From a virus (lineage: Duplodnaviria > Caudoviricetes): 64,000 bases of DNA. The stretch is taken from positions 1-64,000 of the IMG/VR virus record IMGVR_UViG_3300031836_000002; one strand, given 5' to 3'. Below are positions 1,067 through 16,880 of this stretch, piece by piece. Within the stretch, counting starts at the first letter, position 1. Every line of letters begins with the position of its first letter. The notes beneath the pieces are model-generated. The model had not been told where the DNA came from. It ran no database searches and worked only from the letters and a program-made list of their open reading frames with translations. The translations under genes were made by a program, and so were the position numbers.

Positions 1067-2149
1067 TTAGTTGGCGTATTCAGCCGTGAGACGAGCAATG
1101 TCGTCTTGGACGGCCTTATCGTGAGACTCGTCGGTTGGCTCGAAGCCAAGCTCGTCGCCATCAGCGGAGAGCTTGACGAGTGCCTTCTCAGGGAGAAGCT
1201 CTTCGAAAAGCTCAGGGTTCGAGAGGAGCAACTTCACAGAAGCTTCCTTCGTCTTCGGGAGGATGCGTCCCTGTCGGACGAGTCCAGCCACACGCTCTTC
1301 CGCCGCGGCCTTAGCTCCCGACTCAACAAGGTCATTGACCTTCGTGGTGAGTTCGACAATCTGGCTACCTGCTTCAGCGACTGCACCAATGAGGTCATCA
1401 GCCGTAGCTTCTTCCCCGTTCGACAGCTTCAGGAGGCCAGAGTTACCCAGCTCTTCCTGAATCTTGTTCGACAGTGCGATTGCCTTGTCTGCGTCCGCGG
1501 CCTTCTTCTGAAGCTCCGGAACGTCAATGTTGTGTTCGGAACGAAGGGTTCCGATCATCTCATCAAGATCCATTGATCTCTCCTTGTTTGGTGCTGTCAG
1601 AATTACAGCGTCACTCCTACCATCGGCAGAAGCCGCAATGACTTCAGAAAAGTCATCCAAGTCTGTGATGTAGGGGCGGTTTGTCACTGCAACATGAAGC
1701 AGAGTTGGTCCCGCAGGCTTACCTGTTCGAGTATCTATGTAGTTCAGGTGCATCATGGCGGACGCACCCAAGAGGGTCTTGCCCAGCTTGTCGGCGGCTG
1801 TTTCGTCGCGGGCGTCAATCTGTGCGTAGATCTTGCCATTGCGCTTGGTCAGGCCAATAACCTCACCGATGTTGCGGTCTGGGTCTTCCGTGTGTTGGTT
1901 CTTGGCATCAGCCTTAGGAACCTGCACGATGTCGCAGACTTTGTTGGTGAAGTTGGCGATCAGCTTGTCCGCGAAGGAGTCATTGATGTTGACCTTGCCT
2001 CCGCGCACGCCGGGATAGATCAAATCCCCATAATTGAGGATGTGCTTTTCGAATACGCGGCCCTTGGTGGACCGAGACAGCTCGACAAAGTTCTCTCCGT
2101 TTACCGGGGGTACAATCACAAATCCGTCCATGGTTTCTACCATCGGCAA
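1067..2149 (-). CDS. Capsid maturation protease/scaffold fusion (Mu gpI-like)
   Basis: N-terminal half with HTEDPDRNIG...ASA...GPTLLHVAVTNRPYI (Mu-like protease pattern); acidic helical C-terminal scaffold; synteny. Confidence 0.8.
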   Translation of the reverse strand: MPMVETMDGFVIVPPVNGENFVELSRSTKGRVFEKHILNYGDLIYPGVRGGKVNINDSFADKLIANFTNKVCDIVQVPKADAKNQHTEDPDRNIGEVIGLTKRNGKIYAQIDARDETAADKLGKTLLGASAMMHLNYIDTRTGKPAGPTLLHVAVTNRPYITDLDDFSEVIAASADGRSDAVILTAPNKERSMDLDEMIGTLRSEHNIDVPELQKKAADADKAIALSNKIQEELGNSGLLKLSNGEEATADDLIGAVAEAGSQIVELTTKVNDLVESGAKAAAEERVAGLVRQGRILPKTKEASVKLLLSNPELFEELLPEKALVKLSADGDELGFEPTDESHDKAVQDDIARLTAEYAN

Positions 2150-2168: not shown

Positions 2169-2444
2169 TTAGTCGAAGCTAGTGTCTGCTGAGGCTTGAT
2201 CTAGGACAGCTTCCAAGTCTTCCAGCGTGCTCGGATAAACCGTCCACATGGCCGTGGGGGTGGGAGTGGAGTCTGAGAGCTGGTCAATCCAGTCTTCCCA
2301 CTCCACGGCACTGCCTCTAGCGGCCACCACCAAGGCTCCATAAGCCTTCAAATTGGTGTGGGTGGGGTCGTAGTAGCTTTCCGTCTCTGTGTAGACACCC
2401 ACGGGGATCCCACTTGCTGTTTGGTGAAGTAGATAATCAGACAT
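2169..2444 (-). CDS. Small acidic hypothetical protein, candidate immunity protein
   Basis: 91 aa; overlaps the upstream small gene; second of two small ORFs after the giant effector gene. Confidence 0.55.
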   Translation of the reverse strand: MSDYLLHQTASGIPVGVYTETESYYDPTHTNLKAYGALVVAARGSAVEWEDWIDQLSDSTPTPTAMWTVYPSTLEDLEAVLDQASADTSFD

Positions 2445-2748
2445 CGTAGGAATCCAGTTCCTTCTTCAAAAGTCGCCCTTTCAGTTCCGGAGCTTTTCTC
2501 CAGACCCAGCTCTGTTTCGGGGTGGTAACGAACCACTCACTCTCTACTTCCTCGATGGAATTTATCTGAAGGATGACATCCTTCTCAGGATGCACTATCA
2601 GAGAGACCTCCAGCTCGTCTTTGTCGTCAGAGACATTTCCTAGAAGGACTATCAGATCAAGATCTGTCTTGTCACTGATGGCGTGCACTCCGAAAGGGAA
2701 GAAGGCTTTGAACTTCTTCGTAAACTCTTCTTTTGTTATTTGAGCCAT
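2437..2748 (-). CDS. Small acidic hypothetical protein, candidate immunity protein
   Basis: 103 aa; overlaps the stop of the giant effector gene (translational coupling). Confidence 0.55.
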   Translation of the reverse strand: MAQITKEEFTKKFKAFFPFGVHAISDKTDLDLIVLLGNVSDDKDELEVSLIVHPEKDVILQINSIEEVESEWFVTTPKQSWVWRKAPELKGRLLKKELDSYDV

Positions 2749-5700
2749 TGCTTCTTCACCTTGTTCAGTGCTTCCAGTACGTTAGCTTTCATCACCAAGC
2801 GCTCCTCAATAGGAAGCCCTCGGATCATTTCAATGCCACGCTTCTTCAGTGCCTGTATCGCGTGATTTCTCTTGGCTGAGTCCTTGAAAGCGTACACCTC
2901 AACGATGTCCAGCAAGGCTGCCGAATGGGGAAGCATGGTCTCGTTAGCTGATCCGGTGAACTTCTCCAACGCGTACTTGGGATTGGATGGAGCATCCGAA
3001 GACTTCCACTGCACATCCCCATAGCGGTCATAGGAGTAGGAGTACGTCCGAGTACGGAGAAGAGCTGCTGGGTCGAAGAAAGCATTGAAGCTGTTGTGTT
3101 CAGAAATCGAATGGATTCTGGTGTACACGTTGCTGGCAGAGTCATTGGTCTGGTCAGTTGTGGCTGACATTCCATTGACCCAGTAACCGTTCTGGCGAAG
3201 ACGTTCTTCCGCTCCCAGTGAGCCTCCTACAAGAGATTGTCGGAGAGGGTCATTCGTGGATGATGTCATCAGCATCTTCCCTGTCTCTCGGATCTCCTCC
3301 GGTGTGAAGTCGTAGCGGATCCAGTGGGGCTTTCCTGTTTCCATTTCAGGCTGGGACATCATCTGGTGGTCGTATTGTGGCAGGTAAAGCTCCTCTTTCA
3401 GAACTCTGCTGACCTTCTCTTCTCCGAAGTGCTTGGTGTGGAGGTCTCTCCAGAAAGTTAGCTCCTCTTGAGAGGTCATGGAGTCGCTAAGAGTCTCTAG
3501 GAACGTCTCAGACACGTCACTCTTCTGCGTCTTGAAGTCTTGCAGGTCAGCCTTGGCTGCGGCGTATGGAGACCCTACCTCGTGCATTCTGTTGTCGAGG
3601 ATCTGGTACATCTCCCTCCAGTACACCAGCTCGGCTCCAGCCTCGTCCATGGGAGTGGAGTCGATACCCATGGTCTGAAGAATTCCCTCGATTCTCTCCA
3701 AGGAGTTCGCTACAGCTGCTGTGTCCTTACCAGATCCGTCTGCTCGGAACATCACCTTGCCTCGTTGGCTGGCTACGGTGTTGGTCTGTCCACTATTTCG
3801 GAAAAATACACGCTCACCAGTATCAAGCTTGATCTCGTACTCGACGCCACTCGATCCCTCGACGCCTCCTGTGGATTCCGGGTTGGAGGTCTTGATGTTC
3901 TCCTCCACAGATCCGGACATCTCGTTGGTGTGGTGGTTCAATTTCACGACGTAGCCGAGAGACTTGGGCTGCTCGACAGTGACCGGGGTCCACTCAGACG
4001 TGTCCAGTTCAGAGCTATTGACGAAGCTAACCTGAGCAGTGTCCAAGTTCTTCAGAAGGTACGAACCGTTCGCCATCAATGTGGCTGTCTGTACCCCATC
4101 CGGGTTCGTGTATACCTTCAAGTCATCTGAGAGATTCAATGGAGTGAACTTCTCGATTTTGGGTGCTACCTTGCCATTCTCCTCATGGGCCTTTTCAATG
4201 TCTGCCAGACGTGGTTGGTAGAAGTCCAGAAGCATCTTGTACTGATCCACATGGACCATGGGCACAGTGGTTCCAGACTTGAACTTGTAGTGGTCCACTC
4301 CCACCACGGAGATGTTCGAGATGAGGTTCGGTGACCACTCCTCAAAATCTTCTCTAATGGTCTTTGCCGTCTCTGCAAATTTGGTCATCTTCGCGGCGTT
4401 GTAATCCTTGTCCAACGCGTGATGGTTCACGGTCTTCGCGGCATCCAAGAGACTGGAGTGATGAACATCCACAGCGCTGAATCCCTGAGAGGCTGACTTG
4501 TCCTTGTCAAACTGAGCTGTAGCCGTCTGGAGGAACTCAAGGACAGCTTTCTGCTTCTTCGGTCCAAGTGTTAGCTCACCCAGAAGGTTTTTACTTCCAC
4601 TCTCGTACTCATCTGTCCAGACAGTGGCGAAGCCTCCTTGAATGTCAGCTCCTCCCACCATGGTGGATTTTCCAACTGAGCCGGTGGTCAATACCTGTTC
4701 GTGTAGTCGAGAGTCTCCCAGACCTGAAAGTACATCGCCCAAAGGGGTGTCTGGGATCTCTGGAAGGACTCCAAGCTTGGAGTCTTTGTAGGCTCCTGCC
4801 CAGAGGGTTTCGAAGTCTACACTCAGGTGGTCTCGCCGGTCTAGAACAGCTGCCATGAGACCTTCAAAGTCCTGTGATACCAACGTGCCGTCGATCTTGT
4901 AGGGAACGTCATAGCCCGTGTCTCTGCTCTTCATTCCTTCGACCATCAAGTCTCGGATAGAGGCATCATCAATCTTCGAGACGTTGGTAATTCGACGTTG
5001 GATCTTGAGGTAGGCCGCGTCTGCTGTGGCTTTGTCGATCTTTCCTGCACGCATGGAGTCGAACAGTTGGGTGTAGACGGTCTTGGCGTTGCTGTCTGCT
5101 TTGTGGTCCCCGGAGAGTCCCTTCCACGAGCCATACGATCTGAACGCTCGACCCTTGTCAATTCCGACAATCTTTCCACTGCCATCAATGATGGCGTTGT
5201 CACCCTTTGTGTCGTCGTTGTCTAGGAGCCAGTCAAGAACGTGCTCCCCTCCGACCCCGGCGATCTGATCCACACTCAGGGTTCCGTAGTCGGCTCCCAT
5301 GAGGTCACCCACGCCATGTACCTTGGACTGCAATAGGCCATACTGGCCATCAATGGTGACCAGACGAGGCTCAGCGGAGTTGAATCCCCAGAGGCGTCCC
5401 AGAGAGTTTCCTAGCCCTTCGACCTCGGCTCTGAATCGTCCATTGTCGGTGTCTGGACGCGGCTTGAAGAAGTAGTCGTTTCCGTGCTGGTCGGAGTACT
5501 CCGCAATGGGGTGTGTGCCTTGCTTGACCGTCTGGAGAGGCTTCTTGGTGTACACCGGAATCAAAGACTCTAGGTACTGCTCGTGAGACTTCTTTTGGAA
5601 ATAATCGGTGACAGCCTTGTTCTTGACAATCGACGGGTTTCCAAATGTGCTTGCCGCTAATGCTTCTTCGTAGATCGCTGTCAGTTCCGGGTTGCTCTCT

Positions 5701-8700
5701 GCCACATCGTCGTAGTACTTCTCGGAAAGAGAAGTTGTCCAGCCCTCGGTGGGGAATTGGGAGTTGTCGAACAGTTGATCATATGCCTTGGCTGGAACGA
5801 TGTCATCGGTCCACTCCACAGGATCAGAGAGGGTTTTGTTTCCGTCCTTGGATCGCTTCTGTGCCGATAGAGATAGCTTGTCTACCAAAGCCTTTTGATT
5901 GTTTCGGTGAGCAAACACCCAAGCGCGTCGATCTGCCACCGTCAAGTGCTCTGGGTATTTCATTTGAGCCTTGATCAAATAGTTGTCTAGCTCAGCTATG
6001 GGGATTTGGGTTGTTCCCATCGGAGTCCAGTCACCCTTGACTGGTCGAAGTGCTGACACCTCTCCGGGGACTGCTGCTGCCCAGTGGACCTTGTGGGTTC
6101 CTTCATTCTCTTGGTAGCCGGGGTGCTTGTATCCAGATTTGTGTGCTTTTCCCTCGGCTGCTGCGGCTTTCACTTCGATGTTGTACACCTGAACGAAGTC
6201 GCCCTTGTTGAAGGCTGAGATCCACTGCTGCTTGTCGTAGATGTCCATCTTGGTGGAATGCAGACCAATAATCTCACCGTTGCCTATGGACATTGAAGCT
6301 TTCTTGATCCAAGCCTTTTTCTCTGCGTTGGTGGTCACGTTTACCGAGTCCATCAACTCTTCGGGCATGACAGCGGATCCTTGGATGTCCCAAGTGAAGA
6401 GCTTCGTGGTGTTGGAATCCGGGATCTCTGTATTCACGCCCGCGAGCATGGCGTCTACTGCATCTGCTACAACTTTGAGCTTGTCGTCATTGCTCTGGGA
6501 AGTACTCTTGTCGTCATCGAATGGGGTGCTGGGCTGCTCGACGGCATACTTAAGGACAAGAGCTGCTTCGTATACTGCTCCAGCTTCCTTCACAGCATTG
6601 ACTACCTTATTCTGCTCAGCTAGGGTGCCTTTGTTCTCTGAGGTCTCGTACTCCTTGAATAGCTTCTGTGCTTCCAAGAGAGAGTACGTGGACACCTCCT
6701 TGCCAAAAAATGTCACATCTCCTGTGTACCCCTGAGGCAGCACGGAGTTTCCGAACTCATCCGTGAGCTTTCCCTGAACAAAGAGGGTCTGAATCTTTGC
6801 CTTGGTGAGCTGAACAGGTTCTGCATCTCCGTGAGATTTGATCTTGTAGTAGGGGTAGTAGCTGGACGCAGACTTCAATACCTCTTCAGGAGTGGGGTCC
6901 CCATTCGACTTCTTCCACGAGCCATCTGCTTGCTTGGTGTGGCTATCCATATCGTCATAGTTGCCCACGATCTGTGCACCTGTGGAGGCCTCGAACAGCC
7001 ACAGAGCTGTAGTCTTCTGTCCTATCTTTCCTGTCGAGCCAACAGTCGCACTCTTGGGTTTGGTGACAGTAACTACGTCTCCATTGACTTCATACGTCCA
7101 CGCCTTCGCCCCGGAAGGAGAACCGTTGAAGTACGTGCCGTCTTCCAAAGCCTCTACGTTTTTCAATTTAGGCTTGAGGACTGACTTGTTCGTGCTCGAA
7201 GTCTTCTTTTCCGCTGGCTCTGGGTAGTCGCTAGGAATACCTAGGTACTTGTTCATTCCGGCCTTGTGGTTAGCCTTCACCTTGGCTGTCGTCAGGGAGG
7301 TGGCCGCACCTGTGGAGTTGACGTATACTCCTGTGCCATCTTCCTTGACCACCATGTACGTTGGTCCTCCGCCTGTGTACTTTCCGGGATGCAGACCACT
7401 CTTGTTCTTCTCTGTGTCGATCTCGTCTAGCTTCTTCAGCTGACCAAGAGACGCTGCATTCTTTTGGGTACCTCCTATCCCAATTGAGATTCCCTCTTCG
7501 TCCGCGTTGAAGAACTCCCATTGAGTGTCGGTGGTCTTTGTGTGGAAGCCTCCGAAGGTGTCTTCAAATATGTCACCCTTCTTGGCATTCTCTACATCCG
7601 CTGGGGTCGCATCGGCGTTGTCGGAGTAATCAAGACCGTCATCAGAGTTGGGGAGCTTCTTGAGGATGTCTCCTATGGGGTCCTGAGAATCTTCTTCGAG
7701 AAGCTCAGTCTTCAGTTCAGGGATGGATCCGTAAACAGTGCTTTCCCAGACATCATCATCTGAGAAGAGTCCCGTGAGGACTCCATCGTCATCCAAGTAA
7801 TTCCATTGGTCTGTCTGCGTCTTCAGGAAGTGTCCTCCAGCCTCGGCTGGTACCACGGTTCCTTCAGGAGCATTGATGATGTCGGCTGCCTCGGTAAGCC
7901 CATCTCCCACGTTCTTCGATGTCTTCTCTTCCTCGGCCTGCGGGAACTTGGTCAGCTTGCTCTTCAGAAGGTCGATGAACTTCTGCTTGGTGACGGTCTT
8001 GTCCTTGTCGAACCCTACGATGTCATTGGGGCTGAGCTTTCCTAGAGCGTTGCCTTTCTTGTTCAGCTCGCTCTTGAAGATCTTCCCGTTGAAGCCTTCG
8101 AGGATCTCGATGGCTTGCTCGATGTCGTCCTTGGTGAAGGCTCCTCCAGTCTCACCGGTGGGTGTGGTCTGGGACTCTGCACTTCCGATGTTGACCGTGG
8201 GGCCTTCAGAGTTCTTCTCTTTCTTGGTCTCCGTCTTGATTCCAAGCTTGTCCTTCAGCATCTGAACCACGCCCTGCTTGGGAGGTAGGTCCGGGTGGGC
8301 AGTCTTAGCCCATACCTTGAGTTGGTCCTTCGGTAGCTTGGCTAGAGGGTTCTCAGGAACCGACTTCAGTCCGTAGGCGATCTGGAATGATGGGTGACCC
8401 TCCAGAGCATTCAGAGCCTCTTGCATCTCATCAGGGGAGAAACTCTCGCCGCCTGTCTCGAAGGTCGTTTCGAGAGGGTCTGGGTTCCCTGAGTCCTTAG
8501 AGGCCACCGAGAACTTACCGCTAGCTGCGGAGTTCTTGAGGTCGGAGGAAAGAAGAGTTTGACCTCCGGGAGTCAGCCATTTTCCGGTGTCGAGCTTGGT
8601 GTACTGGCTAAGCTTCCCATCCTTCTTAGCAAAGTTGAGTATGGTTCCATTTTCCAGTTCGTCCATCTGCTCGTAGCTTGTGATGACTCCTTCTGGGGCC

Positions 8701-10304
8701 TTCTCTGGGGCCTTCACAGAGTAAACAATCTCACCCTGATAGTTAGAAATGATGGACTCTAGAGCAGTTGAGTCTACGTCGCTCCCAAATTTACTGTGAG
8801 TCCAGACTCCGCCAGCAAGCTTCTCCCAGTTCAGAGGGTCACTAGGCACACTCGAATAACCCAGCTTGTATTTGTAGTCAATCACGGTGCCGGGTCTGTA
8901 ACCCTCAAGATCCGAAAGGGTGAAGCCTTTCATTGCATCGTCAGGCTCTTCAGTTGATTGTGGCTTAGCCTCTTCAACTTCCGTGGGGGAGGGGATCGAG
9001 TACACCCGTCCGGATTCCAGTGCCTCAGCAAAGGTCTCGGTGGGCCACTCCCATCCCATGTCCGGCTCAACATCTACTGCTTCTTCGGTGTCTTTTTTCT
9101 TGAATGTGAGGAAGGATTTTTCTGAGGTGGGGTTATTAAGAGCCTGCACAAAGAAACCGTCTGGCTCAACCTCATCCAAGGAACTGACCAGCTCTGCTCC
9201 CTCAGGAAGGTTCAGAGACTCCTTAGATGCGACCTTAGGGGCCTCTTCTGTCTTGTCTGGGGTCTCGGTTACTTCTTTGTCCTTTGGGGCCTCTACGGGC
9301 GGCTCAGCGTCAGGTGTTGGCGCTGGGGCCTCATCCGATGGAAGTCCACCGTTTGAGTCTTCTTCCACTGGGGCAGGCCCCATGACTAGGAGACCCTTCA
9401 GAAGAGCCAGCTGTGGGGACTCGATCTGGGCCTCAATGCCTTCTGTTCCCCACGCGCCACTCTCAAGCTTTGTTGTGTTGGCTCCAGACGGACCCGGAAG
9501 GTGGACAGTGGTTCCTACAGCCATAGCCTCAAGAGCTGCTGTAGCTGCCGGAAGATCCATTTCTGAAAATGAGGTCTCAGCCACTTCACCGAAGGTGCTC
9601 TGAAGAGCTTCATCCTCTGGAGTCTTCTCAGGGATCAACTCACCAGAATCGTAGAAGCCCTGAAGGTCCTTCTCGTCCACCTCGACATTGAGCTGTACGT
9701 GACGCCAAGACTTCTCTGAGACCTTGGTGAACTGAGGCTCACCATCTGGGTCTGTGAGTGTGGATCCCACGGGAAGGGATGGCATCGAGTAAGGGCTGGC
9801 CGTTGCCTCGAAGTCGATCTCTTCGTATTTTTCGTCTTTCTCCAGATTTCCAGAGAACTTGACCTTGAGCACATTCTTGAGTCCTGTTGGGATGCTTACC
9901 TCGCCACCGGCTGTGAATGCGTGCACCTCGCCTTCCGGGGTCAGGACGTAGAGGAAGGCCGCTGTTTCCTTGTTCTTCGACTTGATCAGTTTTGATCCTG
10001 CGGGGGCCGAGTACTTCGAGTTCCCTACGGAGAATTTCTTGTTTCCGGTAAGGGCAGACTTCGAGGTCTTGATGGAGGCTTCCACAGCCTTGGCCGTGGA
10101 CGCTGAGGGTGCGCCAGAGATGGCATTCTTTGGAGGAGTGATCCCCAACTTAGCTGCCGACTTTTGCTTGGTCTCCTCCACATCTGGGGTGATGATCGAC
10201 CCTACGGGCAGGCCATAGAACTCCGCTCCCTCTACCGTCCGGACGAACCTAGGATCCGCGGCTAGAAGAATGAGATCTTCCAGCAAGTTGTTCGAGTCGT
10301 TCAC
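2736..10304 (-). CDS. Giant (~2520 aa) polyvalent virion-associated protein: targeting-like N-terminus, repeats, HipA/PI3-PI4-kinase-like domain, C-terminal ART-like domain
   Basis: Start revised to GTG 10304 (SD AGGAGA overlapping the upstream stop). Kinase-like motifs YFFKP, RAEVE..N.L..LWG, DWLLDNDDTKGDN, GIDKGRAF (~4780-5560). C-terminal EERL..G...GMS...D....ASNVYTR...NETM pattern. Located between MuF and protease. Confidence 0.7.
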   Translation of the reverse strand: MNDSNNLLEDLILLAADPRFVRTVEGAEFYGLPVGSIITPDVEETKQKSAAKLGITPPKNAISGAPSASTAKAVEASIKTSKSALTGNKKFSVGNSKYSAPAGSKLIKSKNKETAAFLYVLTPEGEVHAFTAGGEVSIPTGLKNVLKVKFSGNLEKDEKYEEIDFEATASPYSMPSLPVGSTLTDPDGEPQFTKVSEKSWRHVQLNVEVDEKDLQGFYDSGELIPEKTPEDEALQSTFGEVAETSFSEMDLPAATAALEAMAVGTTVHLPGPSGANTTKLESGAWGTEGIEAQIESPQLALLKGLLVMGPAPVEEDSNGGLPSDEAPAPTPDAEPPVEAPKDKEVTETPDKTEEAPKVASKESLNLPEGAELVSSLDEVEPDGFFVQALNNPTSEKSFLTFKKKDTEEAVDVEPDMGWEWPTETFAEALESGRVYSIPSPTEVEEAKPQSTEEPDDAMKGFTLSDLEGYRPGTVIDYKYKLGYSSVPSDPLNWEKLAGGVWTHSKFGSDVDSTALESIISNYQGEIVYSVKAPEKAPEGVITSYEQMDELENGTILNFAKKDGKLSQYTKLDTGKWLTPGGQTLLSSDLKNSAASGKFSVASKDSGNPDPLETTFETGGESFSPDEMQEALNALEGHPSFQIAYGLKSVPENPLAKLPKDQLKVWAKTAHPDLPPKQGVVQMLKDKLGIKTETKKEKNSEGPTVNIGSAESQTTPTGETGGAFTKDDIEQAIEILEGFNGKIFKSELNKKGNALGKLSPNDIVGFDKDKTVTKQKFIDLLKSKLTKFPQAEEEKTSKNVGDGLTEAADIINAPEGTVVPAEAGGHFLKTQTDQWNYLDDDGVLTGLFSDDDVWESTVYGSIPELKTELLEEDSQDPIGDILKKLPNSDDGLDYSDNADATPADVENAKKGDIFEDTFGGFHTKTTDTQWEFFNADEEGISIGIGGTQKNAASLGQLKKLDEIDTEKNKSGLHPGKYTGGGPTYMVVKEDGTGVYVNSTGAATSLTTAKVKANHKAGMNKYLGIPSDYPEPAEKKTSSTNKSVLKPKLKNVEALEDGTYFNGSPSGAKAWTYEVNGDVVTVTKPKSATVGSTGKIGQKTTALWLFEASTGAQIVGNYDDMDSHTKQADGSWKKSNGDPTPEEVLKSASSYYPYYKIKSHGDAEPVQLTKAKIQTLFVQGKLTDEFGNSVLPQGYTGDVTFFGKEVSTYSLLEAQKLFKEYETSENKGTLAEQNKVVNAVKEAGAVYEAALVLKYAVEQPSTPFDDDKSTSQSNDDKLKVVADAVDAMLAGVNTEIPDSNTTKLFTWDIQGSAVMPEELMDSVNVTTNAEKKAWIKKASMSIGNGEIIGLHSTKMDIYDKQQWISAFNKGDFVQVYNIEVKAAAAEGKAHKSGYKHPGYQENEGTHKVHWAAAVPGEVSALRPVKGDWTPMGTTQIPIAELDNYLIKAQMKYPEHLTVADRRAWVFAHRNNQKALVDKLSLSAQKRSKDGNKTLSDPVEWTDDIVPAKAYDQLFDNSQFPTEGWTTSLSEKYYDDVAESNPELTAIYEEALAASTFGNPSIVKNKAVTDYFQKKSHEQYLESLIPVYTKKPLQTVKQGTHPIAEYSDQHGNDYFFKPRPDTDNGRFRAEVEGLGNSLGRLWGFNSAEPRLVTIDGQYGLLQSKVHGVGDLMGADYGTLSVDQIAGVGGEHVLDWLLDNDDTKGDNAIIDGSGKIVGIDKGRAFRSYGSWKGLSGDHKADSNAKTVYTQLFDSMRAGKIDKATADAAYLKIQRRITNVSKIDDASIRDLMVEGMKSRDTGYDVPYKIDGTLVSQDFEGLMAAVLDRRDHLSVDFETLWAGAYKDSKLGVLPEIPDTPLGDVLSGLGDSRLHEQVLTTGSVGKSTMVGGADIQGGFATVWTDEYESGSKNLLGELTLGPKKQKAVLEFLQTATAQFDKDKSASQGFSAVDVHHSSLLDAAKTVNHHALDKDYNAAKMTKFAETAKTIREDFEEWSPNLISNISVVGVDHYKFKSGTTVPMVHVDQYKMLLDFYQPRLADIEKAHEENGKVAPKIEKFTPLNLSDDLKVYTNPDGVQTATLMANGSYLLKNLDTAQVSFVNSSELDTSEWTPVTVEQPKSLGYVVKLNHHTNEMSGSVEENIKTSNPESTGGVEGSSGVEYEIKLDTGERVFFRNSGQTNTVASQRGKVMFRADGSGKDTAAVANSLERIEGILQTMGIDSTPMDEAGAELVYWREMYQILDNRMHEVGSPYAAAKADLQDFKTQKSDVSETFLETLSDSMTSQEELTFWRDLHTKHFGEEKVSRVLKEELYLPQYDHQMMSQPEMETGKPHWIRYDFTPEEIRETGKMLMTSSTNDPLRQSLVGGSLGAEERLRQNGYWVNGMSATTDQTNDSASNVYTRIHSISEHNSFNAFFDPAALLRTRTYSYSYDRYGDVQWKSSDAPSNPKYALEKFTGSANETMLPHSAALLDIVEVYAFKDSAKRNHAIQALKKRGIEMIRGLPIEERLVMKANVLEALNKVKKQWLK

Positions 10305-10311
10305 GGTTCTC

Positions 10312-10533
10312 CTAATCGTCGTACCGGATAGCTCCCGGAACTTCTTCAAGCTTAGATGCGACCGTTTCTATGTCTCCTTCGAGATGAAGACCAGAAACAA
10401 GAATTTGTGCTGCGCTCAAGCTGCCGAACTGATACTTACTATCGGTCTTTCGCGCATCCTCTAGAACCATGAGTAGTCCTGTCGCTGCTGCCCCAAGACT
10501 ATCAAAGAAGAATCTTGCTGTGGTTCCGGACAT
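10312..10533 (-). CDS. Hypothetical protein (73 aa)
   Basis: Fills the gap between MuF and the giant gene; its stop overlaps the SD of the giant gene. Confidence 0.6.
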   Translation of the reverse strand: MSGTTARFFFDSLGAAATGLLMVLEDARKTDSKYQFGSLSAAQILVSGLHLEGDIETVASKLEEVPGAIRYDD

Positions 10534-10535
10534 GG

Positions 10536-11330
10536 TTAGACTCCCGTGACGAACGAAATAATCTTCTTTAGTGCACCTATGATGGCTGAAAAAATCTTGA
10601 GTGGGAGTCTTTGAACTCCATCGGTGTCCATGGTCTGCTGAGGCTCTCCGGGGGACTCAATGTCTAGTTCCTCGAAGGCGTTCTCTAGTGACACCACCAG
10701 AATCACCAAACAGCACCGACAGCGTGGGTGCCTTGGGGGACCTTGAAGGTTAACGTACACCCCCGGAGAATTCCCTGTCACGGGGAATTCATCATTGAGT
10801 CTCACCACGGTGCCATGAAGTCGTCGGCAATGCTCGCACGGAGTGTTGTTGACGAAGTTAGCTAGCCACAACTTCTTGAGCTGGTGTCCAAAGTCTGAAA
10901 GCTCCGCGTAGGAAGCAATCAGGGCATCTGTGTATCCACGCTGCGCACCAACTCCGGCGCTGTGCTGCATTCGAAGGAGGGCCTTACGCCGAGCCTTATC
11001 TTCTTTGTCGCTGGACTTGTAATCCCGGAGGTTACGTCGGATGTCTGAGATGAGGTCCTTGAGGTACTGGGTATTGAAAATCTGGCCCTGTGGGTACCAT
11101 CCGGGGATCTCGGACTGTCGTGCGGTGTGTTCGGCTGCCACGGCTGCACTGGTCCTATACGCGGCGCGGACGATGGCTTCCAGACGATACCGGACAGTCT
11201 GAGCATTCAACTCACCACGATCCCATGCGTCGAACGCTTCGGAGATGTGTACTCTGACCTGATCCTCTATTGAAGAGGCTGCTAGGTGGGCTACACGGGC
11301 TGCCGCGAGCTGCTCCCCAAAACTAGCCAT
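10536..11330 (-). CDS. MuF-like minor head protein
   Basis: KKLW...TPCEHCRRLHG...PPRHPRCRC, the characteristic Phage_Mu_F Cys/His motif; downstream of portal. Confidence 0.85.
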   Translation of the reverse strand: MASFGEQLAAARVAHLAASSIEDQVRVHISEAFDAWDRGELNAQTVRYRLEAIVRAAYRTSAAVAAEHTARQSEIPGWYPQGQIFNTQYLKDLISDIRRNLRDYKSSDKEDKARRKALLRMQHSAGVGAQRGYTDALIASYAELSDFGHQLKKLWLANFVNNTPCEHCRRLHGTVVRLNDEFPVTGNSPGVYVNLQGPPRHPRCRCCLVILVVSLENAFEELDIESPGEPQQTMDTDGVQRLPLKIFSAIIGALKKIISFVTGV

Positions 11331-12037: not shown

Positions 12038-12083
12038 ATTTCACCTCCACTACCACTATAACAGACAGATTGCATTTGAAATC
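12038..12083 (-). promoter_or_regulatory. Internal promoter with the phage palindrome, in front of the candidate immunity genes
   Basis: Minus strand GATTTCAAATGCAATC-N7-TATAGT with extended -10 TG, same geometry as the early cassettes. Confidence 0.65.
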
Positions 12084-15000
12084 TTACGAGATGGCTGAGA
12101 AATTATCTTCCGATGGAATGTCGTTGGCCATCGAGAACATGGCCACGTCCAGCTCAGTGGCCCGTTCACGTTTCTCAGGAGTCAGCGGAGGTGGGCTGAA
12201 GATGGCTCGTCGTTCCTCGTAAAGAGCGTGCATTCTTTCCATCTTCACATCCAGTGATTCTGGGGTGTGGAACTGAAGCTCGTAGGTTAGCCCATCCTTG
12301 GTTGTCACTGCGGTGTTGATTCCTCGGTAAGGAATATCTGTACTCCCCCACGAGTTTTTCACGCGGACGGTGTTTCCCTCGGCACGTAGCTCATCAATCG
12401 CTGATTGAGAGGTCTCCACGTAGCTTCGAGAGTCTGTCACCATGGTGTAGCGAACAGTGTCCCCTAGTTTCTCTCTGGCTTGTGCGTGCGTGATTCCGTC
12501 TGTGGTGGCATCCTTCCGGATCTTTCTCTCCAGAGAGTCCTTCTCCTTGAGTTTGAAGTCCAGTCCGGAAAGCTCTGCCTTCAGGGAATCGGCCAGTTTC
12601 TGTATTCTGGACGTAACAACCGGCTCTTCTGCGGTGGCTTGCTCGTAGGCCTCATCGGTCAGTGCAGAAATCTGCTCATCGGACCCTTCGGGAAGATCCG
12701 CACTGCTTGGACGCCCTGAGGCTACTTTCTTGGCTGCCGCTACCTTCTTGGCTGCCGCTACCTTCTTGGCTGCCGCTACCTTCTTGGCTGCTGCGGCTTT
12801 CTTGGTTGCCTTCTTCTCGGCAACCACCTTCGGAACCTTGAATCCATCCCAAGCTGACTCTCCTGAGGATAGGTAGCTGTCGAATGCTTTCTGGTTAGTG
12901 ACATTGAAAGACTTGCCGTCACCGCTTCCGACCAACGTGGCGGGCTTTCCATCCACATTGTTGTCGAACAGGTTCACCTTGTCGAAGGTTCCATCGTCCT
13001 TCAAGGCGTCAAAGATCTCAGGAAGAACCGCGTAGGTTCCTCGGATCTGAGCTTCTGGAACAATTCGGTGGGAACGCTCGGCACGGGTCTGTGCTCGTGA
13101 GATTCCCTGCCGTGGTTCTAGGTACAGGTAGTTGGCCTCTACTGCGTAGCCTGCCTTGCGGGCTGCTCTCACCTTTGCTCTAACAGAGTCTGCACTGCCA
13201 TTTCCGGTGCCATCGTAGATCACATTGTATCCGCGGTCGAGCGCTGCTGAGTGGAGGCGCTTGGCTAGCTGGCTTGACTCCTCGTGGGAGTGACCTGCCC
13301 AGCTCATGTCTTCCTTCTCGTAGTCTCCGGAGCGGATGCGCTCTAGTGCTAGTTTCACTTCCGGGAACTGCATCTTCACAGCATCCGGGTCGATAAGCAA
13401 GGCTCCGGGGGTTCCCTCGAAAGGCTCAAGGTCGCCGGTGGCGTCGTCCACAGCACGAGATGTGGGGTACTTCGTCAGCTCGGCGTTTCTACCCTTGGTC
13501 ATGGATCCCTTGCCAGAGGCTGGGCCTCCACCGTTCATGTACTGAACAGGGTTGTCCTGAGGCTCTAGTCCTACAAGGAAGTCAGAGATAATCTTGTCAT
13601 GCAATTTCTTGCGGGCTGCCGTGAACTCGCCCTTCTCATTCACGTGCGCTGACGTATAGGGGCTGGCGGACAGTGCTTTGATCTCACCCTCGTCTGGAAT
13701 GCGTGCTGACTTCTCTCCCAAGCTCTTGGGGTTCCGCTTGAATCCCGCCCTGTCGGCGGATGTTTCAGTCTTTGGGGAGGAAGACACTGATGACTTGGCG
13801 GCTTCTACCGCTGAGTCGTAGTCAGCCGCATACTCTCCCTCACCGGGGGTGTATGGAGTGTCAAGCTTGCTCTCGTCGTAAGCCAAGAAAGTAACGTCTG
13901 GCTCTCCTCCGTTGAAAGCTGCGTAGTCTTTCTTGTTCCAGTCGTCCGGAGCTTCGTCGTCGTCCCACTTGAGTCGTGATTTGACTCGAAGTCCTTCCAG
14001 AGCGTAGATTCCGGGGAGCACTGTGTCGAATGCGTCTGCTCGTCGCCCACCTTGAGAAATTGCTGTGGCCATGAGATGTCTGGCTACTTTCTTGTTCTCA
14101 CTGGAGGGGTCTGCCCACACCGAAACAATCTCATCACCATCCTTAAGAGCCATTCCAGATTTTCCATCTTCGGACATGAAGAGTCGCATCTCGGAGTACT
14201 CACTCTCGTCGTACACCCAGACAGAGCTAGAGAATTTGTTGTTCTCCTTCATCTTCTGCATGGCGGAGTGAAATCTGGAAGCTTCAGCTTTTGATTCGAG
14301 TTCGTAAATTACTGGAGTGGAACCACCAGCGGCTTTGATTACCGCGTTACGCTTTGTTCCGTTCTTGAAAACGGCTTTGGTTTTGACGGAAGAACCATCA
14401 ACTACAAGCCCATCTCCTCCGCTGCCTGAATCCGCTCGTCTGTCCAGTGTTTTTGGATCTGACTCTTTTGCTCCGGTGTCGCGTCCTCCGGAGTCACGTA
14501 CTTCAGGTACGCTTTTCTGGCTTCCGGCGTCAGTGGACTTATCGGAGTATTTTTCTCCATTGTTTGACCTTTTTTCGTCTCTTGTTTTATTGAGATTATC
14601 ACGATTTGAAGTCTCTGAGGCATTCTTCGCCTTGTCGTTCGCATCCATGTTTGGAGTTTTCGGATCACCCGTCACATCAGTGAGATCTCCTGAGGAGTCC
14701 GCCATGAGAGATTTGACGCGAGCCTCTGTCGTAGAGGACAGCTCGACCTCTCCCTTGCTGTTGAAGAATCGAACAGATCCATCAGGAAGTACCAACATGG
14801 TGGCGTCTGGAGCGCTTGAGTGTGTGAAGGCTTTGGACCCAGCGGGGGCTTCGTAGTCAGAGCCTCCGGCTGTGAATTTCGTGGGTCCAGAAAGCGTCGG
14901 TGTGGTAACCTTGGCCTTCCCTTTGACCTTCCGAGATGCCTTGGTGCTGACCTTTCCTGCTTTAGGCGTCTCCGCGGCTGCCTTGGCTGCTGCGGCCTTG

Positions 15001-15218
15001 GGATTGGCCTTAGCGGTCTTTACCTGTGCGGGGGCTGAATTCTCCGGGAGAGCTGCTGTAGAGCCTCTACTGGTAGTTCTGGACTGCTTGGAGGCTCCCT
15101 TGGGTGGTGGCTTACCTTTGTTGGCCTTGCGTGCTTTATCAAGAACGTCAGCGGTGATGGGTGTACCAATGGGAAGGCCGTAGTACCGAGACCCCTCTGG
15201 GCTTGCAACCTTACGCAT
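12084..15218 (-). CDS. 1044-aa polyvalent effector: GNAT-like, zeta-toxin-like P-loop kinase and small alarmone synthetase (RelA/SpoT-like) domains
   Basis: GNAT-like segment (GGRRADAFDTVLPGIYALEG..., ~13870-14290); P-loop GGGPASGKGS, IDPDAVK, HEESS, VIYDGT (~12880-13660); LKEKDSLERKI..DTVRYT..YRGIN..YELQFHTPES..H.LYE (~12090-12660). Confidence 0.8.
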   Translation of the reverse strand: MRKVASPEGSRYYGLPIGTPITADVLDKARKANKGKPPPKGASKQSRTTSRGSTAALPENSAPAQVKTAKANPKAAAAKAAAETPKAGKVSTKASRKVKGKAKVTTPTLSGPTKFTAGGSDYEAPAGSKAFTHSSAPDATMLVLPDGSVRFFNSKGEVELSSTTEARVKSLMADSSGDLTDVTGDPKTPNMDANDKAKNASETSNRDNLNKTRDEKRSNNGEKYSDKSTDAGSQKSVPEVRDSGGRDTGAKESDPKTLDRRADSGSGGDGLVVDGSSVKTKAVFKNGTKRNAVIKAAGGSTPVIYELESKAEASRFHSAMQKMKENNKFSSSVWVYDESEYSEMRLFMSEDGKSGMALKDGDEIVSVWADPSSENKKVARHLMATAISQGGRRADAFDTVLPGIYALEGLRVKSRLKWDDDEAPDDWNKKDYAAFNGGEPDVTFLAYDESKLDTPYTPGEGEYAADYDSAVEAAKSSVSSSPKTETSADRAGFKRNPKSLGEKSARIPDEGEIKALSASPYTSAHVNEKGEFTAARKKLHDKIISDFLVGLEPQDNPVQYMNGGGPASGKGSMTKGRNAELTKYPTSRAVDDATGDLEPFEGTPGALLIDPDAVKMQFPEVKLALERIRSGDYEKEDMSWAGHSHEESSQLAKRLHSAALDRGYNVIYDGTGNGSADSVRAKVRAARKAGYAVEANYLYLEPRQGISRAQTRAERSHRIVPEAQIRGTYAVLPEIFDALKDDGTFDKVNLFDNNVDGKPATLVGSGDGKSFNVTNQKAFDSYLSSGESAWDGFKVPKVVAEKKATKKAAAAKKVAAAKKVAAAKKVAAAKKVASGRPSSADLPEGSDEQISALTDEAYEQATAEEPVVTSRIQKLADSLKAELSGLDFKLKEKDSLERKIRKDATTDGITHAQAREKLGDTVRYTMVTDSRSYVETSQSAIDELRAEGNTVRVKNSWGSTDIPYRGINTAVTTKDGLTYELQFHTPESLDVKMERMHALYEERRAIFSPPPLTPEKRERATELDVAMFSMANDIPSEDNFSAIS
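12721..12792. repeat. Tandem 18-bp repeat x4 encoding (AAKKVA)n linker
   Basis: GCTACCTTCTTGGCTGCC x4 (near-identical), between the zeta and SAS domains. Confidence 0.95.
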
Positions 15219-16878
15219 GGTTCATATCCTCCGCTGCCATATCCAACATCTCCCGCGCCAACGATAGTAGCCCAGAACCATCTCCAGTCAGGGACAGCCG
15301 TCTCTCGAACTCTTCCAGATCTTCGTCCTTCTCATCCGGGGGTTTTTCTTCTGCTCCCACGTCTGAAATCTTCTTTAGGAATTCTTCCAGAGTCCAGTCT
15401 CCCTCTAGTCCCAGTTCGGATCCTGCTACGTCTACCGGGGCTGCTGGATCTACCGGGGCTGCTGAGGGATCAACACCCTGCTGCTGAGCTGCCAGATCTT
15501 GTGCCTCTGCCTCTGCCTCAGCCTCAGCCTCCTCACTCTCTCGCATATCCACTTCGTCGTAGTCAATCTCCAAACCAAACTCTTCTGCTTGGTGCTCTTC
15601 GAGCGCTCGCAGGAACTCGGGGGTAACCGTGGTCTGGTTGGCCAGCTTGTCGAACGTGGCTGCAATTGCACCCTTTTGTTCGTCTGTGAGCTTTCCCCAT
15701 GTGAAGGTGGGGTACCGACCTCCGGTGAAGTTGTAGTCCACAAGCTGAGGAATAATGTAGTGGTTGATCTGGGCTGCAATGTCGTCCATGACGGCTCGAA
15801 GCATCAACACAAACATGTCGTCGCCGGGGGCTGCAAAGTTGACTAGAGAACCTTCTCCGGCTCCCGCTCCTTGCTCCTTGTCGAAGAACGACGCGAGGAT
15901 GGACTTCGACATCTGAGAGTTGTGGTGGTTCACCCAGTTCAAGAATTCGAAGGATCCGGCTTCCTTGAGCACCTCTACCTTGAATCCTTCAGGCATCATC
16001 ATCCACTGAGCCAGTGCGAGGTTGGCTAGTGAGGTGTTGAATTCCTTCTTGGACGCTGTAGTGGCACCTGCCGGTACTGTTCCCACGCGGGTACCTACGG
16101 CTGCACGCTGTGCAGCCAAGTGAGCAATGAAGTAGGTCTTGACTTTCTTGTCATAGTGATAAAAAGCAGACTGGAAGAAGCTAACTCCGTAGAACTTGCG
16201 CTCTTCTTCTTGTGCTGCGTAGTAGAAGGCTTGCTCGCGTGGGATGAAAACGTCGAGCTGCTTTCCTCCCATGTAGGAGCGCTGACGCAGGCCGGAGAAC
16301 CCTCCAGACTTGTCCACTATGAACGTGACAGTCTCTGCTGGACGGTGTGCCAGCTTCTTGAGGGTGATCTTCCCAGCAAGAGGTCCGGTCTCAGGTGCCC
16401 AGAAAACCTTCTCGAAGGCTGCAAAGCCATCGAACATTCCCTGAAGCATTTGGCTGATGAATCGGTGGAAGGTGACTGTCATTCCACCACTCTCAGGAGG
16501 AGTTCGTAAGACTGCACTGATGAAGTCTGCTTCCTCTTCTCCATCCTCGGCAGGGACGAACGTAGCGGTGCTCAGAGCTGATCTGATCGGTAGAGTCAAG
16601 AGACGGTAAAGAGCGCGTGCTTGGCCATCCATACGGCGCATGGTGACAAGCTGGCGGACAGTGGGTCCCCACTCTTCACTCTCGTCGCGGAAGACTTCCT
16701 GTAGGTCCTTTTGAGGATCCTTCTTAGTACCATTCTTGATTGGCTGGTACGGAGAAGCGAATGGAAGTAGGGAGTCGGAGCCTAGCTCTACGTTCAGAGC
16801 GGCGATCTCTATGCTCGCAGGCTTGGGTGTCTTCTTCTTGCGATTCGATGTCGGTGTGACCTCATCGTCTTTGGCCAT
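15211..16878 (-). CDS. Portal protein (Mu gp29-like)
   Basis: 555 aa directly after TerL; M.RMDGQARA, GFAAFEKV, YGVS.FQSA, HHNSQMSKSILA, IIPQLVDYNF patterns; acidic C-terminal tail. Confidence 0.88.
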   Translation of the reverse strand: MAKDDEVTPTSNRKKKTPKPASIEIAALNVELGSDSLLPFASPYQPIKNGTKKDPQKDLQEVFRDESEEWGPTVRQLVTMRRMDGQARALYRLLTLPIRSALSTATFVPAEDGEEEADFISAVLRTPPESGGMTVTFHRFISQMLQGMFDGFAAFEKVFWAPETGPLAGKITLKKLAHRPAETVTFIVDKSGGFSGLRQRSYMGGKQLDVFIPREQAFYYAAQEEERKFYGVSFFQSAFYHYDKKVKTYFIAHLAAQRAAVGTRVGTVPAGATTASKKEFNTSLANLALAQWMMMPEGFKVEVLKEAGSFEFLNWVNHHNSQMSKSILASFFDKEQGAGAGEGSLVNFAAPGDDMFVLMLRAVMDDIAAQINHYIIPQLVDYNFTGGRYPTFTWGKLTDEQKGAIAATFDKLANQTTVTPEFLRALEEHQAEEFGLEIDYDEVDMRESEEAEAEAEAEAQDLAAQQQGVDPSAAPVDPAAPVDVAGSELGLEGDWTLEEFLKKISDVGAEEKPPDEKDEDLEEFERRLSLTGDGSGLLSLAREMLDMAAEDMNHA

Positions 16879-16880
16879 AA

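Follow-up and report, generated by a model that had tools for sequence, protein, structure and literature searches.

The locus described here raises the question of what a protein of 2,522 residues, encoded among the head genes of an uncultured phage, may do for its virus. The gene was analyzed in a window of 64,000 nucleotides, positions 1 to 64,000 of the IMG/VR record IMGVR_UViG_3300031836_000002 (Duplodnaviria; Caudoviricetes); this virus record is 124 kb long and has direct terminal repeats. The encoded protein, herein referred to as the giant, carries an N-terminal "address" tag, a set of repeats, and a C-terminal four-part cassette that includes a kinase-like and an ADP-ribosyltransferase (ART)-like domain. 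With a probability of about 0.6 by our estimate, it is a capsid-internal "polyvalent effector", i.e., an enzyme cargo that is loaded into the capsid and enters the host along with the DNA. Proteins injected by phages decide the first minutes of an infection, and few of them have been studied (T4 Alt, N4 vRNAP, P1 Dar).

A giant gene in a Mu-type head operon

The giant gene (2736..10304) is located on the minus strand, as are all the features described below. Its reading frame (2736-10349) is open over 2537 codons when counted from a TTG at 10349. This TTG was rejected as the start in favor of the GTG at 10304, which has an AGGAG ribosome-binding site 5 nt upstream, directly follows the stop of a conserved 73-aa ORF (10312..10533), and yields 2522 codons plus the stop. 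The database entry P0002 (2522 aa) is identical to this product, and the coordinates and the length of ~2520 aa given in an earlier sequence-only reading of the window agree with both. Residue numbers used herein are counted from the TTG; numbers for the true protein are lower by 15. Full-length homologues share 31-44% identity with the giant. No matches were found for the whole protein in Pfam, PHROGs, or PDB sequences, or for eight of its segments in NCBIfam, and profiles of the giant family gave only chance matches to PDB sequences.

The gene belongs to a head-assembly operon with the order portal, small gene, MuF-like gene, 73-aa ORF, giant, two small genes, Mu-I protease, decoration protein, and major capsid protein. 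The MuF-like head-morphogenesis protein (264 aa, 10536..11330) matches PHROG head-morphogenesis families and Pfam Phage_Mu_F (33 bits, cut-off 29.6). The Mu-I-type prohead protease/scaffold gene immediately downstream (1067..2149) matches Pfam Mu-like_Pro and PHROG 328. At the position of the 73-aa ORF, a gene of 72-75 aa was found in almost all related loci. The gene order from portal to major capsid protein is shared by 11 further homologue loci that bear the cassette. Apart from the small genes after the giant, it is also kept in Microbacterium phage Magritte and in two loci that have the tag but no cassette.

These two small genes, s1 (103 aa, 2437..2748) and s2 (91 aa, 2169..2444), form a chain of overlaps, s1 overlapping the giant's stop by 13 nt and s2 overlapping s1. 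An HMM for s1 matched 9 of the 12 cassette loci and none of the three non-cassette loci (12/25 versus 0/32 in a wider set); for s2, the corresponding numbers were 11 of 12 and none of three (18/25 versus 1/32). The two genes tend to travel together with the cassette; in 7 of 25 cassette loci, they are missing or were not detected. When relatedness is considered, the association is not significant: s2 tracks the cassette in ~4.8 of five independent contrasts (p = 0.06). The products of s1 and s2 may be translationally coupled, cassette-specific partners of the giant, acting either as inhibitors that silence its enzymes in the producing cell or as packaging chaperones.

A shared "address" tag and a repeat-rich N-terminal half

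The address region (residues 34-156, 9882..10250) is common to other proteins of the same head slot. It is 28% identical (E 2e-11) to the N-terminus of a neighbouring 1044-aa protein, a toxin-type Zeta-toxin protein, and 32% identical to the corresponding region of Magritte gp17, which bears a different payload. The tag was also found on giants with further payloads, P0022 (NUDIX) and P0025. An HMM of the tag matched 79 of 164 family proteins, and it also matched many related loci in which the cassette is absent; a search among proteins of 378-2000 aa for longer ones with the tag found none at E <= 1e-5. On the protease tree, the state of the cassette changes at least eight times, with five changes forced by well-supported branches; the payload is therefore swapped among relatives.

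This modularity bears on an alternative explanation, by which the giant is a late enzyme that stays unpackaged in the cytoplasm of the producing cell and there modifies, for example, phage DNA, capsid proteins, or host factors late in infection; the position of its gene among the head genes would then be a matter of timing only. No MuF or portal domain or fusion was found in the giant itself, its packaging is something that we infer, and marking of DNA by a DarT-like enzyme is conceivable. Nevertheless, the tag is common to unrelated payloads in the same head slot, and timing alone is therefore hard-pressed as an explanation. Moreover, members of the kinase family are fused to head domains in mycobacterial prophages, and s1 and s2 are more sensible if the enzymes need silencing in the producing cell. 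We consider a purely cytoplasmic role improbable.

About 1,150 N-terminal residues of the giant are made up of repeats and low-complexity linkers. The sequence-only reading had listed seven copies of a repeat. All seven motifs are present, ending at W215, W300, W516, W591, W849, W944, and W1145, each with a Lys exactly 6 residues ahead of the Trp; statistics on the corresponding regular expression, being post hoc, were given little weight. When leave-one-out HMMs were trained on single sequences, they were weak and did not clearly recover the repeats, and repeat HMM matches in homologues partly reflect orthology. The evidence for the repeats therefore rests on a profile-profile test across the family. 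Scores between copies had a median of 20.3 and a maximum of 37, versus medians of 7.6 for repeat-control and 6.4 for control-control pairs (maximum 14.6; Mann-Whitney p = 3e-11). By these profiles, six copies are mutually related: those at W215 (9669..9791), W300 (9414..9539), W591 (8541..8666, with a similar copy in Magritte gp17), W849 (7770..7886), W944 (7482..7601), and W1145 (6879..7004). The copy at W516 (8766..8891), with profile scores of 6-13.5 that are indistinguishable from controls, is doubtful.

A duplicated helix noticed previously proved to be part of a larger duplicated module of ~85 aa. Copies A (residues 628-715, 8205..8468) and B (residues 729-812, 7914..8165) were found by self-alignment; their local alignment score is 70, versus 27 +/- 4.7 for shuffles (z = 9), and was reached by none of 2000 shuffles. 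Copy B is the most conserved N-terminal block across the family. Together, the repeats and the duplicated module may serve as a chassis or spacer.

The great length of the protein, its repeat-rich and linker-rich N-terminal part, and its position adjoining the scaffold/protease gene would also fit a mainly structural protein (an internal head, ejection-channel, or scaffold-like component) that uses inactive relics of enzyme-like domains as building blocks. This explanation is very improbable. Among 162 relatives, 154-160 retain the catalytic residues of the kinase and 157 the candidate catalytic Glu of the ART-like domain. In addition, the slot accommodates payloads of entirely different kinds, which speaks against the C-terminal half being structurally essential.

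The region between the repeats and the cassette, herein referred to as M (residues 1180-1575, 5625..6812), is conserved in 107 of 164 family proteins and has no matches in Pfam, NCBIfam, or PDB sequences. An ESM Atlas lead to NlpC/P60 was rejected (it scores only 0.80, and a conserved Cys is absent from the family).

A cassette with kinase and ART-like folds

The C-terminal cassette consists of a kinase domain, a "mid" domain, a beta/helical domain, and an ART-like domain. Its order and composition are invariant in all 162 proteins compared, with the mid domain always present and the ART-like domain always at the C-terminus. The cassette occurs in no fewer than 2,758 protein clusters (50% identity), nearly all of them unannotated, and the giant belongs to a very large family without a name.

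The first part is an atypical protein-kinase-like (PKL) domain (residues 1575-1874, 4728..5627). The kinase-like core reported earlier (DWLLDNDDTKGDN ... IDKG) is present as quoted and occupies the most conserved family columns. The model has a PKL fold, the absence of which the sequence-only reading had named as grounds against its kinase call, with the Lys, a DxHxxN catalytic loop, and a DFG-like Asp in place; the predicted catalytic residues are K1629, E1644, D1713, N1718, and D1731. Judging from the model and this conservation, the giant carries an atypical PKL kinase fold with intact catalytic residues. CtkA, PI4K, PI3K, and VPS34 are found among the best 50 structural matches listed, and HipA is not among these. 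At the sequence level, the threshold was reached by no Pfam family. PF00454 (PI3/PI4-kinase) has no match to the window protein at E <= 1 and matches 5 of 16 homologues (best E 1e-5), with P0097 at 22.1 bits, below the cut-off of 27.1. Similarly, PF07804 (HipA_C) does not match the window protein and matches three of eight short relatives at E 3e-6 to 3e-5 (24-28 bits, cut-off 30.5). Like the giant's domain, CtkA of H. pylori, PI4K type II alpha, HipA, actin-fragmin kinase, and MavQ are atypical PKL kinases; the giant differs in having a Lys where the DxHxxN motif of its family has His. This replacement was counted against the effector reading.

The kinase is followed by the alpha/beta mid domain (residues 1875-2080, 4110..4727), for which the model is confident, and by a beta-sandwich with a helical bundle (residues 2130-2324, 3378..3962).

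The last part (residues 2325-2537, 2739..3377) is predicted, at moderate confidence, to have a DarT-like ART-type fold. The C-terminal GMS, VYTR, and NETM motifs noticed earlier are indeed present and coincide with the columns most conserved across the family. The model can be superposed on DarT structures, and in the structure ranking all seven of these stand above every other ART; the lack of an ART split beta-sheet, which the sequence-only reading had named as grounds against its ART call, was not seen. Overall, the interpretation given in that reading is supported. Near-invariant residues of the domain are E2470, D2441, G2444, and R2385. The conserved acidic residue starting the candidate strand is Glu, not Asp, and the candidate catalytic E2470 is encoded at 2940-2942. 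R2345 was considered as the strand-1 Arg/His and dropped, as the structural alignment begins at model residue 217 and does not fit this assignment.

By sequence, no Pfam ART family matched the giant, and PF14487 (DarT) matched none of the phage proteins at E <= 10, versus 5e-53 for the EPEC DarT control. An hhalign comparison of the domain with 121 DarT sequences was not significant (probability 0.8%, P = 0.07), and its global mode was uninformative. The sole hhalign segment, itself not significant, pairs E2470 with E170 of EPEC DarT2, and E170A inactivates that enzyme (bioRxiv 10.1101/2024.11.17.623984). The structural match to ARTs may reflect only a common alpha/beta arrangement in a domain with an unrelated function, a possibility that we regard as unlikely but as deserving some weight.

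Another explanation keeps the fold and changes the chemistry: the domain could be a Tpt1/KptA-like RNA 2'-phosphotransferase, an OspC-like ADP-riboxanase, or an NADase, which together with the kinase would perhaps form a nucleic-acid repair or NAD-depletion module. The ranking of all seven DarT structures above every other ART argues against this. The known phage RNA-repair kinases belong to the P-loop enzymes, not to the PKL kinases. We consider such an assignment quite improbable.

DarT proteins (DarT1/DarT2; DarTG/DarT-NADAR; PF14487; PDB 8baq, 7omv-7omy, 7omu, 7yk3) also differ from the giant in organization. DarT is a toxin of ~210 aa that works against phage, whereas the ART-like domain analyzed here sits inside a 2,522-aa protein and is carried by a phage. 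DarT systems have a DarG macrodomain or a NADAR partner; neither Macro (PF01661) nor NADAR (PF08719) was found at E <= 1 in the whole phage record. This absence of a domain to reverse ADP-ribosylation was likewise counted against the effector reading.

Comparison with injected proteins and a proposed role

The closest described counterparts of the giant are found among polyvalent proteins (Iyer, Burroughs, Anand, de Souza, Aravind 2017, PMC5512222; PMC9503650). These are also large, combine several effector-type enzyme domains, have their genes in the neighborhood of those for portal, MuF, and capsid proteins, and have been predicted to enter the virion and be injected; their recurrent components include both kinase and ART domains (PMC5512222). 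The giant has two effector-type domains in one polypeptide, the kinase and the ART-type fold, and lies in a neighborhood of portal, MuF-like, and capsid genes. The ARTs of polyvalent proteins belong to the Tox-ART-HYD2 clade, with an active site of H (strand 1), Y (strand 2), and D (strand 5), whereas the giant's domain is closest to DarT and keeps Glu. The polyvalent-protein kinase, reported as being without the entire C-terminal subdomain and mainly from Verrucomicrobia-Chlamydia and Bacteroidetes (pro)phages (PMC5512222), shares with the giant's kinase a conserved Gln in the last N-lobe strand and a His-Asp insert, as compared by description. The fixed order of kinase, mid, beta/helical, and ART domains was not found described in this literature (PMC5512222, PMC9503650).

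In Mycobacterium abscessus prophages, "minor capsid and ADP-ribosyltransferase fusion" proteins (e.g., prophiFSQJ01-1 gp54, McProf gp54) contain a clear homologue of the kinase (E 6e-20) with its motifs kept. They are encoded in the head operon next after the portal gene and, as in the giant, have the kinase followed by an ART. Unlike the giant, these 1,170-aa proteins begin with a VG15 head domain, have a classical ADPrib_exo_Tox ART instead of the DarT-like domain, and are without the repeats and the M region. Phage T4 Alt represents the same concept, a late-made NAD+-using enzyme that is loaded into the head, delivered with the DNA, and modifies host components. Alt is an R-S-E clade ART of ~680 aa loaded via the T4 capsid-targeting system, while the giant has an ART of another clade, tied to a kinase and to a Mu-type head module.

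In the effector reading, the giant would be produced together with the head proteins, brought into the prohead by its address region, and released from the capsid alongside the DNA at infection. The cassette would then act within the new host. Its HipA/CtkA/PI4KII-like kinase would phosphorylate a host target with ATP as donor, and its DarT-like ADP-ribosyltransferase would use NAD+ to modify a host macromolecule, by precedent of the nearest structural neighbours a nucleic acid, although a protein is also possible. The outcome may be host shutdown, host reprogramming, or the disarming of host defences. Precedents are the head-packaged ART Alt and the predicted polyvalent proteins (PMC5512222, PMC9503650), as well as a phage kinase that serves as a broad anti-defence enzyme (PMC13645617).

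A bolder version of this reading, which is tentative and rather unlikely to hold in full, takes the cassette for an unrecognised and very widespread phage weapon. A capsid-delivered DarT-type nucleic-acid ART would modify host DNA or RNA at infection, cooperating with an obligatorily linked HipA/CtkA-like kinase and restrained in the producer by non-enzymatic s1 and s2 proteins, which would form a new class of ART/kinase inhibitors.

The cassette unites two toxin-type enzymes of bacteria, a HipA-like kinase and a DarT-like ART. If they are active, phages would be turning defence-type DNA- and protein-modifying chemistry on the host, and the cassette would be a source of new enzymes and inhibitors for studies of ADP-ribosylation and phosphorylation. 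The architecture of the slot, with its conserved tag, swappable payloads, and payload-linked small genes, provides a testable rule for the addressing of cargo to Mu-type heads.

Gene boundaries and architecture of the giant

The gene for the 2522-residue protein, herein referred to as the giant, lies in a minus-strand open frame extending from 10349 to 2736. The window covers the opening 64 kb of an IMG/VR virus record of 124,209 bp with direct terminal repeats. A conserved 73-codon ORF stops at 10312; after it come AGGAG, 5 bases, and a GTG at 10304. The 2522-aa database entry for the protein, P0002, begins at the same GTG, and about 17 residues precede the first conserved motif in the homologues. 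Since these three lines of evidence agree, the gene is assigned to 2736-10304, exactly as proposed by the sequence-only reading. Residues are numbered here from the TTG at 10349; positions in the true protein are lower by 15.

A word-indexed search found 24 relatives, 1.8-3.5 kaa in length; the contigs carrying them reach 137 kb, and 13 exceed 110 kb. In common they have the N-terminus (residues ~34-350), a block at 556-830 and, above all, the last ~1,350 residues. Among 1.84 billion representatives, a profile of residues 1575-2537 matched 2,758 clusters at the E <= 1e-3 level and 573 at the stricter E <= 1e-30; proteins of just 1,000-1,350 aa were included. Domain HMMs were scored on 164 collected family proteins. 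The kinase, "mid," beta/helical, and ADP-ribosyltransferase (ART) parts, together referred to as the cassette, were all found in 162 of these. The kinase was N-terminal to the ART without exception, and a median of 7.5 residues lay between the end of the ART and the C-terminus. Only 79 of the 164 proteins had the N-terminal tag (residues 34-156) and 107 had region M (residues 1180-1575); two proteins carry the tag and a duplicated module without the cassette. This distribution shows that the giant combines a chassis with a fixed payload of four parts. Region M (5625-6812, minus strand) shows good conservation and contains Trp, His, and Pro-rich motifs; it had no matches in Pfam, NCBIfam, or PDB sequences. 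A Pro/Glu/Ala/Lys-rich low-complexity linker (9150-9350, minus strand; residues ~330-400), very variable in length across homologues, lies between the N-terminal part with the tag and initial repeats and the remainder of the protein.

Seven copies of a short repeat had been claimed for the chassis. All seven motifs were found, each closing with Trp and having Lys six residues earlier. An HMM built on them matched homologues, partly through orthology, and no shuffled sequences; leave-one-out HMMs from single sequences recovered the repeats weakly. The main test was therefore hhalign between family profiles of individual copies and control profiles. Copy-versus-copy scores had a median of 20.3 and reached 37, against medians of 7.6 for copy-versus-control and 6.4 for control-versus-control pairs, both kinds together not exceeding 14.6 (p = 3e-11). 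The profile of the copy closed by W516 could not be distinguished from the controls; six copies are thus solid and one is doubtful. The duplicated helix noticed earlier proved to be part of a duplicated module of ~85 residues (628-715 and 729-812; self-alignment z = 9, with 0 of 2000 shuffles scoring as high).

Kinase and ART-like domains of the cassette

Both the kinase-like and the C-terminal motifs singled out by the sequence-only reading were found unchanged, in the alignment columns where the family is most conserved. Residues 1575-2080, folded from a 51-sequence alignment, gave a model with pLDDT 91.6, for which Foldseek returned a probability of 1.0 for many protein kinases and PI3K/PI4K enzymes. 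The catalytic set is conserved: of 162 relatives, 156 keep K1629, 154 E1644, 157 D1713, 156 N1718, and 160 D1731. The DxHxxN loop retains its His in 99 of the 162; the giant of the window has Lys at this position. Together, the model and this set support the predicted kinase-like fold. No Pfam matches were found in this giant; PI3_PI4_kinase was matched by 5 of 16 homologues (best E 1e-5), and short relatives matched HipA_C (3e-6) or PI3_PI4_kinase (1.6e-4), all under the curated cut-offs. The same kinase family was found in Mycobacterium abscessus prophage proteins annotated "minor capsid and ADP-ribosyltransferase fusion" (pairwise E 6e-20), flanked by a VG15 head domain on one side and a classical ADPrib_exo_Tox domain on the other. 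One of these is gp54 of prophiFSQJ01-1 (2627-6139 of that locus), and thus the kinase also pairs with a second ART, of another Pfam family.

In the model of residues 2130-2537 (pLDDT 93.6, pTM 0.91), an alpha/beta domain (model residues ~196-408) is joined to a small beta-sandwich and a helical bundle. A Foldseek search of the PDB returned no match at E <= 1e-3; DarT and OspC3 appeared there as weak rows only. In BFVD, weak matches (probability up to 0.98) were to uncharacterised proteins of nucleocytoplasmic large DNA viruses, iridoviruses, and baculoviruses. An ORF28 family of arthropod viruses, to which these matches may or may not belong, has been stated to be DarT-related (PMC9503650). 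ESM Atlas features pointed weakly to OspC and DarT/PARP-labelled clusters. The Pfam model PF14487 (DarT), which easily finds EPEC DarT, had no matches in the phage, and hhalign of the domain against 121 DarT sequences gave P = 0.07; membership of DarT as Pfam defines it was accordingly rejected. The sole hhalign segment aligns the NETM glutamate E2470, kept in 157 of 162 relatives, with E170 of EPEC DarT, and E170A is inactivating in that enzyme (bioRxiv 10.1101/2024.11.17.623984). No counterparts of the NAD-binding His/Arg and Tyr were recognised. The C-terminal domain probably adopts an ART fold, as had been proposed earlier.

The head-operon slot and its small genes

The genes around the giant are on the minus strand. 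Upstream are the large terminase, interrupted by an intein and HNH insert (16881-19616), the Mu-type portal (15211-16878), a Zeta-toxin-domain protein of 1044 aa (12084-15218), a 97-aa ORF, the MuF-like gene (10536-11330), and the 73-aa ORF (10312-10533). Downstream are s1 (2437-2748), overlapping the stop of the giant by 13 nt, s2 (2169-2444), overlapping s1, the Mu-I-type protease/scaffold (1067-2149), and the lambda-D-type decoration protein (611-1030). This order was repeated in 11 other loci with full-length homologues and kept in two tag-bearing cassette-less loci and Microbacterium phage Magritte, the last three having small genes unrelated to s1 and s2 after their giants. Magritte is the closest isolate (portal 66% identical), and therefore the host is probably an actinobacterium.

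The terminase intein matched Intein_splicing (2e-12) and HNH_3 (3e-6) in Pfam; in the related locus L010, it is of LAGLIDADG type instead. The 1044-aa protein, with its Zeta-toxin/AAA_33 kinase domain between portal and MuF-like gene, bears an N-terminal tag as in the giant; it is missing from most related loci and was found in locus L013. In locus L012 (1644-3617), no gene was called between the giant and the 119-aa gene following the portal, and so separate MuF-like and ~73-aa genes seem to be missing.

The tag shares 28% identity with the N-terminal part of the 1044-aa protein (E 2e-11) and 32% with gp17 of Magritte (1991 aa, same slot), which has only the tag and one repeat in common with the giant and differs in payload. 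This gp17 (12048-18023 of its locus), annotated "hypothetical protein," had a weak GNAT match (E 1e-3). With the protease gene as anchor, 80 related loci were collected, 57 of them with 4.5 kb or more upstream (cassette present in 25, absent from 32). The tag was still seen in many of the 32, and the protease tree requires at least eight changes of cassette state, five of them forced by well-supported branches. These comparisons are evidence that effector payloads can be exchanged in this head slot.

The s1 HMM matched 9 of 12 cassette loci and the s2 HMM 11 of 12, neither matching any of three cassette-less loci. In the larger set, s2 was found in 18 of 25 cassette loci versus 1 of 32 others, and s1 in 12 of 25 versus none of 32. 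After correction for relatedness, s2 tracks the cassette in ~4.8 of 5 independent contrasts, none of which runs in the opposite direction (p = 0.06, the pairs being too few for significance). For s1, the figure is ~2.6 of 5. In cassette-less locus L065, an s2-like small gene (~9674) lies immediately upstream of the protease gene, beside a short tag-bearing ORF. Neither s1 nor s2 had matches in Pfam or NCBIfam, and no Macro or NADAR domains were found in the phage. Both are candidate cassette-specific inhibitors or chaperones.

Proposed role of the giant

Overall, the initial observation was confirmed and its first interpretation supported. In the best-supported reading, the giant is delivered by the capsid as a polyvalent effector, as that term is used by Iyer et al. 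(2017; PMC5512222). It would be produced together with the head proteins, addressed by its tag, and ejected along with the DNA, after which it would act via its kinase and an NAD+-using transferase. Injection of an ART has a precedent in T4 Alt, and phosphorylation against host defences has one in the T7 kinase (PMC13645617). Unlike the described polyvalent proteins, which carry Tox-ART-HYD2 with Asp (PMC5512222), the giant has a DarT-like ART with Glu, a fixed four-part cassette, and linked small genes. A literature search found no paper describing this cassette. The interest of the giant lies in its cassette family, which is huge and unstudied.
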